Assembly (NCBI RefSeq): GCF_045037415.1
Contig: NZ_CP173438.1
Source of the DNA: Escherichia coli
GTDB lineage: Bacteria > Pseudomonadota > Gammaproteobacteria > Enterobacterales > Enterobacteriaceae
DNA: 64,000 nucleotides
Reading direction: 5' to 3' (one strand)
This document shows, piece after piece, positions 3,118 to 47,488 of the stretch (positions within the stretch are counted from its first letter, which is position 1; the number at the start of each line of letters is the position of its first letter). The translations under genes were made by a program, and so were the position numbers. The notes beneath the pieces were generated by a model. That model did no database searches and was not told where the DNA came from. It saw only the letters and a program-made list of their open reading frames with translations.

Positions 3118-3150
3118 CTGCCCCATGTGGATATGGGGCAGGATTTTATT
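3118..3150. terminator. Putative bidirectional rho-independent terminator between convergent yjhU and transporter gene
   Basis: Inverted repeat TGCCCCATgtggatATGGGGCA followed by a T-rich tract. Confidence 0.5.
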
Positions 3151-4151
3151 GATTAGCGGCGATAATAAGAACAATACCCACAATGTATGAAATAAACATG
3201 GTCAGCAGCAGTTTATTGGTTCCGGCTGGCGCACTGGCAAATTCTCTCCAGATGAAGACTCCCCAGATCACGGCAATCATTGTGGCCCCCTGTCCCAGAC
3301 CGTAGGAAATGGCATACCCCGCCTGACCAGACGCAATCAGACTGAATGCCAGACCGACACACCAAATCATACCGCCCAGCCAGCCGCAAACATGATCCCG
3401 TAAGCTCCCGGAAAAATACATTTTCCCGTTGACCGGTTCTCCTGAAATAGGTTTTTTCATGACCAGCGTGTTAAGGACAAAGTTCGACAAGAACAGCCCC
3501 ACGGCAAACAGAACAAGTGCTGAGTAAGGCGTCATCAGACCGCTGGCAGGCTGGCTGAAATTGTCAGACATGGAGTCCGCCAAGAAGCGGAAAAACCATC
3601 CCATGATGATACCCGCCAGAATGGCAGTAATGAGAACCTTTATTACGGCGAGATTTATCCGCCTCCTGCGTGACACGACCATAGGCTATCGCGGTAAAAA
3701 TAATGGCGCTCACAACGCAGGCGACACCGAGGAACAGAATGAGCGGATCGCCCTGCGGATTGCCGATATAGGTGGTGATCACACCCAGAGCCAGTGCCAG
3801 CCCCACACCCACAGGAAAAGCTACCGCCATACCGGCAAGATTAATAGAAGCGACCAGAAGAATATTGGAAATATTGAAGATAATCCCTGCCAGTATTGCC
3901 GACATCAGACTACTGCTGCTCGCCTGCTGAATATCAGGTATAAAACTGCGACCGGCTTCGCCCATAGAACCCAGCGTGAAGGCAAATAACAAAGAACACA
4001 GCAATAATCCAATTGAATAATCCCAATAGAATAGAGGGAACTCCCATTTTTTATTGCTGACAAGTTTAGTTGTATTCGCCCATGAACCCCAGCAAATCAT
4101 GGTAATAAAACACATTATTATGGCGACAGCATACGATTCCACGATAAACAT
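3146..4151 (-). CDS. GRP/RbsU-type (DMT superfamily) sugar uptake protein, apparently frameshifted around 3645-3680
   Basis: Two overlapping minus-strand ORFs (3564-4151 and 3146-3682), both multi-TM, frames switching near a shared SRR(R) stretch. Confidence 0.55.
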
Positions 4152-12823: not shown

Positions 12824-13547
12824 ATTTCTAGCCAAGCTGGCGATGAACCAGTCCTCTAAAAAATGGGTATAATCATAGTTTATTTACTAATTAAATTAAT
12901 ATAAAGTAATTACTTTATTATATGGAGAATTTATGAAAATGGGAAAAATTGCAGTTACTCCTAATAATGATAAAGCAGCCAGCCACTCTAAAGATGAAAA
13001 TTTAGCCACAAATACAATTAAGAAAAACGTAAAACCTAAATATGGCGATGCGGCATTTTTAGAGTACACTCGACTAATAGTTAACCACCCGAATTATTTT
13101 GGAATGCCAGATCCCTTTGGGGAAAAAGGTGAGATTCAATGGGAAGCTCCATCAAATAGGGCATCGGGGAAATTTAAACACACTCATCAACGGCGCTATG
13201 AATGGTGGAAAAATAAAGCCAGAAGTATTGGGATAGACCCTGACACTGAAAAAGCATGGATTAGTAAAACAGCTAAACTAATTCATCCACTTGGAGTTAA
13301 ACCATGCAAGAAATGCGGTAAAGAAATGGAATTATCTTACTCCTACCCAAATGAGCATTTCTTTTCTCGGGTTAGGAAACTTAATTATATAGATGAGACT
13401 TTTGAGCTATCTCAAAATGAACACATAGTTGATTTGTTGACTCGTTTAGATGATAGATTTGGTGAAAGAATATATTTAGATTTACCACATTTATTTTCTA
13501 CAAAATCCATCACGATTTGAAGTGGTCAACAAAAACTGGCCACCGAG

Positions 13548-14695
<1,148 letters not shown>

Positions 14696-15928
14696 TATGG
14701 CACCTGTGTTGTTCTGAGGTGAGCATATCACCTCTGTTCAGGTGGCCAAATTCAGTAAACCACTTCAATTCCAGATATTTCAAGCAATCTCGAAGCATGG
14801 ATTGAGTATCTAAAAGAACAATACATACCTCAAGAATCACGTATGCTTAGCCCTGGAGCCATGGCAAATCCTCCAGATCGTTTTGATGGATTTCATTCAT
14901 TTAACCGCTGTTGTCGCTCTATTGCTGATAAAGGAAGGACCAAAGAAAATCTTAAATCTTATGTTACTGACAGAAGAGTTTTCGAATATTGGGTGGATGG
15001 TGATTGGGTAGCTGCAGACAGGCTAATGGGCCAAGTTAGAACAAATAATATATTTATTAACGAGGAATGTTTGAATGCCGGAAATGGTGGTTTACATCCA
15101 ACTCCTTGCCAAGCAGATCACATTGGCCCAATCTCACTAGGGTTTTCCCATCGCCCACAATTTCAACTACTTTGCAAATCATGTAATAGTGCCAAAAACA
15201 ATCGTATGTATTTAAGTGATATAATCTCTTTATTAGAAGCTGAGAATGAAGGTCATACGGTTATTTCATGGTTCGCAGAAGAAGTATGGAATCGACTAAA
15301 ACACTCTGTAGATGATAGTGAAAAAGCCTTAAGACTAAGTAAAATACTACGTGATAATAGACATACATATATGAATCTTCTTAAAAAAATAATGGATGAA
15401 GGTTATTATACTTTCCTTGCAAGTCTTTTACATCTTGAGGTAGCCAATTATAACCCAATATTTGAGGGATTATGCATTTCAAATCATTTAACTCATTATA
15501 AATCATTAAAAAAAATAAAACGTGAATCAAAATATGCTGCTGTGCAAAAAACAAGACGAATCAGAATAGCATTTACTTCATTGAATGATTATCATAGAAA
15601 AGAAAATCGGAACGCATTTATTGTATCAAATGAATTATCTGAGAAGTTTTTCTCTGAAGCTATGGATAATTTAAAATCATTAAGTGAAATTACATCTTGC
15701 TTAGATGAAAAAATATCCGGAATAATATCTGAGAATTCAGATTCAAAAAATGAATTTCGAACAATCATTACAGATCTACGAGAAATAGTGACAAACAATA
15801 AAGAAAAATTCAACTTGATATTAAAATATCTAATATCAGGGATGAGCGAAATAGGAAAAGAACTGGAATCATATTGGGAAAATGATCGTTATGTTCGCTC
15901 AATCCCAGAAGAATTTATAGAGTAAGAC

Positions 15929-42000: not shown

Positions 42001-42289
42001 ATTGTTAGCATCCATAAAGTGAAGATCACACTACACCATAAAGAAGAAACGAGTCAGGAAAATGACATCGAATGGCAACATGCGCGGGCCTGAGGCCAAA
42101 GAAATGTAAAACACTGTTGTTATTTGTAACAACGGAAACATTTACGGAAATTATTTGTCTTTCTTCGTGATCAAAAATGCTGTGTCTTGTTGGATTGGAG
42201 TGATGAGGGCTGCGTTTAGGAAACGCCCTATATTGTACGGTTGCATTATCGCGGTAGGGGTAATGCACGTGTCAGTATGATGAGCTGAC

Positions 42290-42415
42290 CACACTCACGT
42301 GGGTGGACTGGTATAACAATCGACGATTGCTGGAAAGGCAGGGCCATATCCCACCGGCAGAAGCAGAAAAAGCTTATTATGCTTCCATCGGAAACGATGA
42401 TCTGGCAGCCTGAGT
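42290..42415 (+). pseudogene. Possible integrase-core (transposase) C-terminal fragment
   Basis: Frame gives ...VDWYNNRRLLERQGHIPPAEAEKAYYASIGNDDLAA*, resembling transposase C-termini. Confidence 0.25.
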
Positions 42416-42572
42416 TCACAGATAAAACACTCTCCAGGAAACCCGGGGCGGTTCACTTAGCCGCGTGTCCATTATTGCTGGATAAGATCACACTTTAAAA
42501 TGCCCTATATAGGGTTAACCAGTAATTATCTGTATGATAGCTTTGAGTTCGGGAGGAGGTAATGACTCCAAC

Positions 42573-42968
42573 TTACTGATAGTGTTTTATGTTCAGATAA
42601 TGCCCGATGACCTTGTCATGCAGCTCCACCGATTTTGAGAACGACAGTAACTTCCGTCCCAGCCTTGCCAGATGTTGTCTCAGATTCAGATTATGTCGCT
42701 CAATGCGCTGAGTGTAACGCTTGCTGATAACGTGCAGCTTTCTCTTCAGGCGTGATTCATACAGCGGCCAGCCATCCGTCATCTATACCACGACCTCAAA
42801 GGCCGACAGCAGGCTCAGAAGACGCTCCAGTGTGGCCAGAGTGCGTTCACCGAAGACGTGCGCCACAACCGTCCTCCGTATCCTGTCATACGCGTAAAAC
42901 AGCCAGCGCTGACGTGATTTAGCACCGACGTAGCCCCACTGTTCGTCCATTTCAGCGCAGACAATCAC
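42573..42968 (-). pseudogene. insB: IS1 insB with internal nonsense codon (TAG at 42783-42785)
   Basis: Reads ...[20 protein letters not shown]...; canonical IS1 has W at the stop position. Confidence 0.6.
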
Positions 42969-42994
42969 ATCACTGCCCGGTTGTATGCGCGAGG

Positions 42995-43270
42995 TTACCG
43001 ACTACGGCCTGAGTTTTTTAAGTGACGTAAAACCATGTTGAGGCCAACGCCCATAATGCGTGCACTGGCGCGACATCCGACGCCATTCATGGCCATATCA
43101 ATGATTTTCTGGTGCGTACCGGGCTGAGAGGCGGTGTAAGTGAACTGTAGTTGCCATGTTTTACGGCAATGAGAGCAGAGATAGCGCTGATGTCCGGCAG
43201 TGCTTTTGCCGTTACGCACCACGCCTTCAGTAGCGGAGCAGGAAGGACATCTGATGGAAATGGAAGCCAC
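42995..43270 (-). CDS. insA: IS1 InsA
   Basis: 91 aa [42 protein letters not shown]... Confidence 0.9.
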
Positions 43271-43498
43271 GCAAGCACCTTAAAATCACCATCATACACT
43301 AAATCAGTAAGTTGGCAGCATTACCGAAATCCCCATCCTTTAGGGCAGTGAGGATGTCAATAATAGCAGACCACATCATGAGTCATTCTGACCGACACAT
43401 GCCAGAAGCAGAGGCTCCATCCCATTTTATACCTACCTTATAACACTTAGAAAAACAACATGTTAAAAATGTCTATTGGAAACAATTTTATTTCCAAT

Positions 43499-43527
43499 TG
43501 TAATGATAACCATTCTCATATTAATAT
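43499..43527 (+). promoter_or_regulatory. Putative Fur box in fecI promoter region
   Basis: tgtaATGATAACCATTCTCATattaat resembles Fur consensus GATAATGATAATCATTATC; about 40 bp upstream of fecI. Confidence 0.45.
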
Positions 43528-43561
43528 GACTACGTGATAATTAACTTTTGATGCACTCCGC

Positions 43562-44079
43562 ATGTCTGACCGCGCCACTACCACAGCTTCCTTAACGTTC
43601 GAGTCGCTTTATGGCACACATCACGGCTGGTTGAAAAGCTGGCTGACGCGCAAACTCCAGTCTGCTTTTGATGCAGATGACATTGCCCAGGACACTTTTT
43701 TGCGGGTAATGGTCAGCGAAACGCTCTCGACGATCCGCGATCCTCGCTCCTTCCTCTGCACTATCGCCAAACGCGTGATGGTGGACCTGTTTCGCCGAAA
43801 CGCGCTGGAAAAAGCGTATCTGGAGATGCTGGCGCTTATGCCGGAGGGGGGAGCGCCTTCACCTGAGGAACGCGAAAGCCAACTCGAGACCCTACAACTC
43901 CTCGACAGCATGCTGGACGGGCTAAACGGCAAAACACGTGAAGCGTTTCTGCTTTCGCAACTGGATGGTCTGACATACAGCGAGATTGCGCACAAACTCG
44001 GTGTTTCCATCAGCTCCGTGAAAAAATACGTGGCGAAAGCCGTCGAGCACTGCCTGCTGTTCCGTCTGGAGTATGGGTT

Positions 44080-44083
<4 letters not shown>
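43562..44083 (+). CDS. fecI: ECF sigma factor FecI
   Basis: 173 aa matching recalled FecI. Confidence 0.95.
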
Positions 44084-47444
<3,361 letters not shown>

Positions 47445-47488
47445 TGTGTTAACGCCCGGCTTGCCGGGCTTTTAGCTGGAATGTGATT

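Follow-up and report, generated by a model that had tools for sequence, protein, structure and literature searches.

Upstream of the ferric citrate uptake genes in the Escherichia coli sequence analyzed here, a window of 64,000 nucleotides (NCBI RefSeq assembly GCF_045037415.1, contig NZ_CP173438.1), lies a complete copy of IS1 with two nonsense codons in its transposase frame. This element is very probably a non-autonomous IS1F fossil and the upstream border of fecIRABCDE, a module that has spread horizontally; the history of the element is one that we infer below. Judged from its sequence, it is the IS1F of K-12 (the insB7 pseudogene), an already known and ordinary element, inherited as a fossil and not specific to this strain. 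The additions made here are small: a second amber codon, an intact counterpart that a plasmid carries at this joint, and the recognition of the K-12 fec neighbourhood as a 39-kb deletion.

A pattern search for IS1 terminal repeats returned exactly two matches in the 64-kb window, at 42558-42580 on the plus strand and at 43303-43325 on the minus strand, with 0.01 expected by chance. These delimit a 768-bp element of IS1F type on the minus strand (42558-43325), whose left terminal inverted repeat (IRL, 43303-43325, minus strand, GGTAATGCTGCCAACTTACTGAT) is directed toward ykiE and fecI and whose right terminal inverted repeat (IRR, 42558-42580, plus strand, GGTAATGACTCCAACTTACTGAT) is directed toward an IS3 remnant, both repeats being the same as those of K-12 IS1F. 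A preliminary description had placed an IS1 copy at these positions, and it proved to be a complete element with both terminal repeats present. Its size and ends are those of the IS1 family (about 768 bp, with imperfect terminal inverted repeats of about 23 bp, GGTRATG...CCAACTTAYTGAT), as is its layout, with insA, an overlapping insB' in the -1 frame and the A6C slippery motif, and all three protein domains, Zn_ribbon_InsA, HTH_Tnp_IS1 and DDE_Tnp_IS1, were found. The insA gene (42995-43270, minus strand) is present in the ORF list as an intact frame of 91 codons with a GTG start and encodes the InsA repressor/DNA-binding protein (Pfam Zn_ribbon_InsA, 1.1e-18; HTH_Tnp_IS1, 1.2e-28), in which comparison with other copies revealed one lineage-specific change, T79M. 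The A6C motif (AAAAAAC; 43013-43019, minus strand) for the programmed -1 frameshift is also intact. The translated insB' frame (42573-43076, minus strand, 167 codons) is collinear with the insB of IS1A and, with its stops masked, matches DDE_Tnp_IS1 (PF03400) at 1.8e-72 over residues 37-167. An open InsAB' frame, which is needed for autonomy, is absent from the window element, where amber codons interrupt insB at codons 25 and 98. In other genomes the identical sequence is labelled by PGAP as 'IS1 family transposase; programmed frameshift; internal stop', and the internal stop was flagged in every full-length copy that we sampled.

The downstream amber had already been noted as a stop in insB where canonical IS1 has Trp, and the alignment bears this out: codon 98 (42783-42785, minus strand; element nt 541-543, cta on the plus strand) is TAG right before the conserved MTDGW, in the frame ...AFEVVV*MTDGW..., whereas TGG is found there in K-12 IS1A, in IS1X2 and in intact IS1F-type copies. 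The same change is carried by insB7 of K-12 IS1F. The upstream amber, which the preliminary description overlooked, is a CAG to TAG change at insB codon 25 (43002-43004, minus strand) that is synonymous in insA and lies four codons past the A6C site; it is absent from K-12 and from six of the six other copies sampled, all of which have CAG. Because of this codon, even the frameshifted product stops after ...KKLRP, before the catalytic domain. The element is thus unable to encode an InsAB' transposase and can yield only InsA or an InsA-like frameshift product of 88 aa.

When exact 59-mer matches were counted per record, which is distinct from extracting each fec-adjacent copy, the codon-98 TAG was present in 2957 E. 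coli records and the codon-25 TAG in only 862. The codon-98 TAG was also present in all six fec-adjacent copies that were sampled evenly down the ranking. The Trp98 amber is thus old and widespread, while the Gln25 amber is the marker of a sublineage, usable as a clean one in its 862 records. A sequencing error had been named at the outset as the observation that would undo the claim of a nonsense codon. That the TAG codons are base-calling errors of sequencing or assembly, and the IS1 is intact apart from them, might be entertained given that the assembly may contain errors, two isolated 1-bp indels having been found elsewhere in the comparison with a near-identical genome. However, the Trp98 amber is identical in K-12 MG1655 as well as in the 2957 records, the Gln25 amber recurs in its 862 records, and identity over the full element is 100% in the 30 best-listed genomes, which makes an artefact virtually impossible. 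A search with the TGG version of the 59-mer was considered as a count of intact IS1F copies and was rejected, as its 4227 records were mostly mosaic IS1X2-type elements. In another lineage of fec-adjacent IS1F, represented by the sampled copies L013, L015 and L017, a C to A substitution at element nt 313 has turned the A6C motif into A7, and this is a further, independent lesion of the signal for transposase expression.

The window element is identical to K-12 MG1655 IS1F at 762 of 768 positions (99.2%) and to IS1A at 695 of 768 (90.5%). The K-12 element (NC_000913.3, 4518472-4519239), annotated as insA7 (b4294) and the pseudogene insB7 (b4576), lies by fecI in the KpLE2 region, and it resembles the window copy in its length of 768 bp, its orientation, its junction nucleotide at ykiE-fecI, its Trp98 amber and its terminal repeats. 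Neither copy has a target duplication, and the fecI-side flank is the same in both for at least 100 bp. Both its near-identity to IS1F, with about 90% identity to IS1A, and its site at the ykiE-fecI border identify the element as the IS1F isoform. The comparison with the fecI-proximal IS1 of K-12 that had been proposed as a check therefore returned the same element, at the same position and with the same TAG. Six substitutions separate the two copies, with the codon-25 amber, InsA T79M and InsB G112R specific to the window and InsA H34P and T52K being changes of K-12 IS1F itself. The copies also differ in the flank beyond the IRR, which in K-12 is the yjhU side after a 39-kb deletion, whereas in the window it is a 67-bp flank followed by the IS3 remnant.

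Canonical IS1 (K-12 IS1A and IS1E) and IS1X2 share with the window element their length, repeat architecture, insA/insB' layout, A6C motif and Pfam domains. IS1A nevertheless differs from it at 73 of 768 positions, and its transposase is functional, while IS1X2 is an intact, many-copy mosaic with an IS1A-like 5' part and an IS1F-like 3' part. Another relative is the IS1F-type copy of O157:H7 (NZ_AP018488.1, 389-1156), which lies beside a CPBP endopeptidase pseudogene and is identical to K-12 IS1F at 764 of 768 positions. Like the window copy, it is a pseudogene with an internal stop and is without a target duplication, but it occupies another locus, keeps TGG at codon 98 and carries an independent stop, E45*, indicating that IS1F-type elements have been inactivated independently at least twice.

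The joint on which the element sits was investigated from both sides. In the orientation of the element, it is preceded by GGGGATTTC and followed by TCCTCCCGA, and these flanks match at 0 of 9 positions when compared over 9 bp and at 0 of 8 over 8 bp, which confirms the earlier statement that the 9 bp on either side do not correspond. A target duplication of 7-14 bp was also sought around the element without a match, and none was seen at K-12 IS1F or at the five other IS1 copies whose flanks were compared. A target-site duplication of 8-9 bp is the mark of an insertion event and not of membership in the IS1 family. The IRL-side flank (43326-43561) comprises a hairpin remnant (43326-43365), ykiE (43357-43425, minus strand) and the region upstream of fecI; fecI itself (43562-44083, plus strand), identified from the ORF list and the annotation, is the first gene of fecIR-fecABCDE, so that IS1F constitutes the upstream border of the module. 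The 10.57-kb block from 42558 to 53125 is 99.7% identical to K-12.

A fec locus on an IncF plasmid of Klebsiella pneumoniae (L019), which has no IS1 upstream of fecI, allowed the joint to be compared with an IS1-free form. This locus is 96.7% identical to the window from 43330 on and is unrelated beyond that point, the break lying 4 bp from the end of IS1F and falling inside a hairpin. In Klebsiella the hairpin has a perfect 19-bp stem (-40.6 kcal/mol, z -10.6), whereas the truncated version in the window does not fold (-8.2 kcal/mol, z -0.13). The Klebsiella palindrome, TTGACATCCTCCCCGCCC-TAAA-GGGCGGGGAGGATGTCAA (2991-3032 in L019, corresponding to 43326-43365 in the window), overlaps the stop codon of ykiE. 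In E. coli the hairpin is cut by IS1F, any role that it had downstream of ykiE is lost, and ykiE is now transcribed straight toward insA. Neither the missing hairpin arm nor the Klebsiella upstream DNA is present on the IRR side of the window element, and the joint therefore does not represent a simple insertion whose duplication has eroded. Erosion by point mutation of a 9-bp duplication left by such an insertion could be imagined for an element that is old, 9.5% diverged from IS1A and burdened with two nonsense mutations. Yet 0 of 9 matches would require near-saturating change next to flanks that are 99-100% conserved between K-12, the plasmids and the window, and the sequence expected from Klebsiella, namely the remainder of the hairpin arm and the upstream DNA, is absent where it should be found; we regard this origin as extremely improbable.

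On the other side of the element, the 67-bp flank (42491-42557) travels with IS1F-type elements on both chromosomes and IncF plasmids; it is the same in the sampled loci L011, L012, L013, L015, L017 and L018, and nearly the same in L010. It is bordered by nested IS3-family remnants (42283-42490, plus strand; annotated by PGAP as 'IS3 family transposase, incomplete'), which consist of the 3' end of a transposase gene (42283-42413) and then the terminal ~35 bp of an IS3 ending ...GATAAGATCA. The plasmid contig L012 has a complete IS3 at the position of this remnant. In the window the IS3 end (TGATCTTATCCAGCAATAATGG...) abuts the 67-bp flank, and in L013, L015, L017 and L018 (at ~783-815) a different IS3-family end (TGATCTTACCCAGCAATAGTGG...) lies 3 bp further off, an arrangement suggesting that IS3-family elements inserted twice, independently, almost at one site.

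Of the 5426 complete E. coli genomes examined, 2754 contain fecI, and the junction of the IS1F IRL with ykiE-fecI was found in 2593, or 94% of the fecI-positive genomes; IS1F stands beside fec in about half of all E. coli. The junction of the IRR with the 67-bp flank, as it is in the window, was found in 2068 genomes, and the entire 2.3-kb context of the phytase-like gene, IS3 remnant, IS1F and fecI in 1707, while the K-12-type joint of the IRR with yjhU was found in 358. The fec junction also occurs on plasmids, among them a K. oxytoca plasmid. These counts bear on whether a recent, strain-specific rearrangement at the element, by inversion, deletion or recombination, removed a target duplication that was once present. 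The absence of any match in the 9-bp flanks and the difference from K-12 in the IRR-side flank would agree with such an event, and events of this kind have been seen at the element in K-12, MSHS 133 and SK1144. In the window, however, the exact 2.3-kb context is that of the 1707 genomes, the IRR junction is that of the 2068 genomes and of IncF plasmids, and it is the differing flank of K-12 that is the derived state, truncating a gene that is intact elsewhere, all of which renders a recent rearrangement very unlikely. The preferred reading is that the duplication-free joint, as its occurrence across these genomes attests, is old and shared across E. coli. The preliminary description of a rearrangement joint by fecI was thus right in that this is a true joint and not a simple insertion, but the joint is shared widely and is not peculiar to this sequence.

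Two IncF plasmids, pCFS3292-2 (NZ_CP026937.1) and pMRSN346647_113.1 (NZ_CP018207.1), carry intact IS1F-type elements that are 98.4-98.8% identical to the window element. In both, codon 98 is TGG, codon 25 is CAG and insB is open, and PLSDB lists for them an IS1 family transposase with a protein accession. The copy on pCFS3292-2 lies next to fecI between the same two flanks as the window copy, which indicates that the duplication-free joint is independent of the nonsense mutation, and the pairing of the two in the preliminary description accordingly does not hold. The copy on pMRSN346647_113.1 has the IRR-side flank of the window but evgAS-like genes and no fec on its IRL side, a combination which implies that flanks have been exchanged at an IS1F-type element more than once. 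The pCFS3292-2 copy could nonetheless be the product of gene-conversion repair from a second intact copy on the plasmid, the two copies sharing the private substitutions 43C, 144G (Y30C) and 244T, and for this reason it is not strict proof that the joint predates the amber. The two copies (L011, 5985-6752 and 9051-9818) lie 2.3 kb apart in the same orientation directly upstream of fec, where they bracket genes for an MBL-fold hydrolase and an HTH regulator; neither has a target duplication, and the pair is a possible composite-transposon-like unit.

The differing flank of K-12 could be traced within the window itself. Beyond the IRR of IS1F, the K-12 sequence aligns to the window from 3203 down to 1 (yjhU-yjhF-yjhG), so that window position 3203-3204 corresponds to the K-12 joint; K-12 is without window positions 3204-42557 (39.35 kb), a deletion with its end precisely at the IRR. 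Its other end interrupts a gene for a GRP-family sugar transporter (3146-4150) that is intact in related genomes. Since the K-12 joint truncates a gene that is intact elsewhere, it is the derived form, and the window flank, with its 2068 genomes, is the majority form. Deletions that stop at an IS1 terminus are a textbook product of transposition by IS1 within one molecule, or of recombination between the element and another IS1 copy.

Other changes at the element were found in additional genomes. In MSHS 133 (NZ_CP041304.1, 883-1650) the fec-adjacent IS1 is a chimera of an IS1F body containing the TAG and an IS1A-type IRR (…CTTATTGAT), and this structure, with its far flank next to hlyE, points to homologous recombination between IS1F and another IS1. 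SK1144 (NZ_AP018784.2, 3961-4010), which has fecI without IS1F, was considered as an empty site and rejected, because ttacc, the 5 bp at the outer edge of the IRL, is still present there directly beside an IS3-type end; its collinearity with the window stops at 42490. By this trace SK1144 once had IS1F and lost it through a deletion that stopped at the IS3 terminus. DETEC-P80 has a truncated copy of the fec-adjacent IS1F. Taken from the junctions in K-12, MSHS 133 and SK1144, the recombinogenic role of IS1F appears to continue.

IS1F has been described as the 'type IV' IS1 of K-12, which departs from the consensus at 73 positions and shows no detectable mobility by itself (PMC12428005), while under over-expression of InsAB' in trans the K-12 IS1F accounted for 44% of insertions and was the most readily mobilised defective copy (PMC12903888). 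The window element had been called immobilised, which is correct insofar as it encodes no transposase, but its ends are intact, and since its repeats are identical to those of K-12 IS1F, which was mobilised in trans (PMC12903888), 'non-autonomous' is the more fitting term. By analogy with K-12 IS1F, the window element may still serve as a substrate for the transposase of other IS1 copies and offer portable homology to recombination, a potential of which the 39-kb deletion in K-12 is an illustration. It is more doubtful whether the dead IS1F has been an active participant in the evolution of the fec island, its intact ends being used naturally by the transposase of other copies, and we consider this unlikely, if conceivable. 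The Trp98 amber is probably older than the 39-kb deletion in K-12, and the deletion would then exemplify trans-driven, one-ended IS1 activity; were this true, the fec module could also be carried in this way from plasmids to chromosomal islands and back. In a weaker variant, the intact insA may be kept as a trans-repressor of IS1.

Retention for a function of its own, whether of InsA as a trans-repressor of IS1 or of the element for the expression of ykiE or fec, would make IS1F a domesticated element. Several features are compatible with this: insA is intact in the window with both InsA Pfam domains, the ratio of non-synonymous to synonymous substitutions is 7:6 in insA compared with 9:3 in the insB-only region (11 copies, with few substitutions), and IS1F cuts short the hairpin that immediately follows ykiE, a gene whose transcription runs toward insA. 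However, the contrast in substitutions is far too small for significance, and several of the changes in insA affect zinc-ribbon residues (C8Y, Y30C and, in K-12, H34P), which is what decay would produce. Transcription of fecI runs away from the element, and no function need be invoked for the retention of IS1F, given its physical linkage to the fec operon, which is under selection. Domestication is therefore improbable.

These findings are consistent with the following history, in which the order of events is one that we infer. An active IS1F-type element would have become joined upstream of ykiE-fecI by an event that left no target duplication. The candidate events are replicative transposition of IS1, giving a cointegrate or an adjacent deletion, and recombination between two IS1 copies, and replicative transposition and homologous recombination between IS1 elements are equally plausible, as no reciprocal junction was found that would tell them apart. 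A cointegrate or deletion event may have generated the reciprocal junction forms, in which the IRL would be preceded by ...TCGGGAGGA-type sequence or the IRR would be followed by the missing hairpin arm and Klebsiella-type upstream DNA. The block of IS1F and fec would then have spread among E. coli chromosomal islands and plasmids, while insB decayed, probably first at Trp98 and later, in the lineage of the window, at Gln25. The element would persist through its linkage to fec, and its sole remaining roles would be those of a trans-mobilisable end and of portable homology.

The window as a whole is a chromosomal island, in which yjhG-yjhF-yjhU are followed by a sugar/methylthioribose cluster, McrBC, an Eco31I-family restriction-modification system and ISEc12; then by a CP4-like prophage remnant with cbtA/yeeU and the autotransporter gene cah, IS66 and a phytase-like esterase; and finally by the IS3 remnant, IS1F-fecIRABCDE, IS911/IS600 remnants and metabolic genes. 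There are no tRNA genes in the 64 kb, which places the attachment site of the island outside the window. Islands associated with leuX have been listed for extraintestinal E. coli in a review (PMC7545054), and the combination of Fec with an Ag43-type autotransporter in the window recalls them.

Three further observations were made within the island by comparison with the near-identical genome THO-003. A 1250-bp IS911 (13518-14767; ends TGAAGTGGTCAACAAAAACTGG... and ...CCACTTCA, with a 3-bp ATT target duplication) splits a gene for an Alw26I/Eco31I/Esp3I-family restriction endonuclease that is uninterrupted in THO-003, and the two cognate methyltransferase genes downstream are spared by the insertion. 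At ~3636, in the minus-strand gene for the GRP-family transporter (3146-4150), there is a 1-bp insertion (GAGAACC, compared with GAGACC in THO-003) that divides the gene into two ORFs (3146-3682 and 3564-4151); the frameshift may be genuine, making the transporter gene a pseudogene, or may stem from a fault in the assembly. At ~30760, a 1-bp deletion (CTGAACCGG, compared with CTGAGACCGG in THO-003) probably frameshifts a YeeP-like GTPase-family gene of the prophage remnant.

The presence of IS1F with an insB pseudogene matters little by itself, because both already figure in the annotation of the K-12 reference and have been the subject of experiments. The fec genes are a virulence and fitness determinant in E. 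coli from mastitis and from the urinary tract. For these genes, IS1F is a convenient marker of the boundary of the mobile module, and the fec neighbourhood of K-12 is to be read as an IS1-adjacent 39-kb deletion derivative of the island form present in the window.
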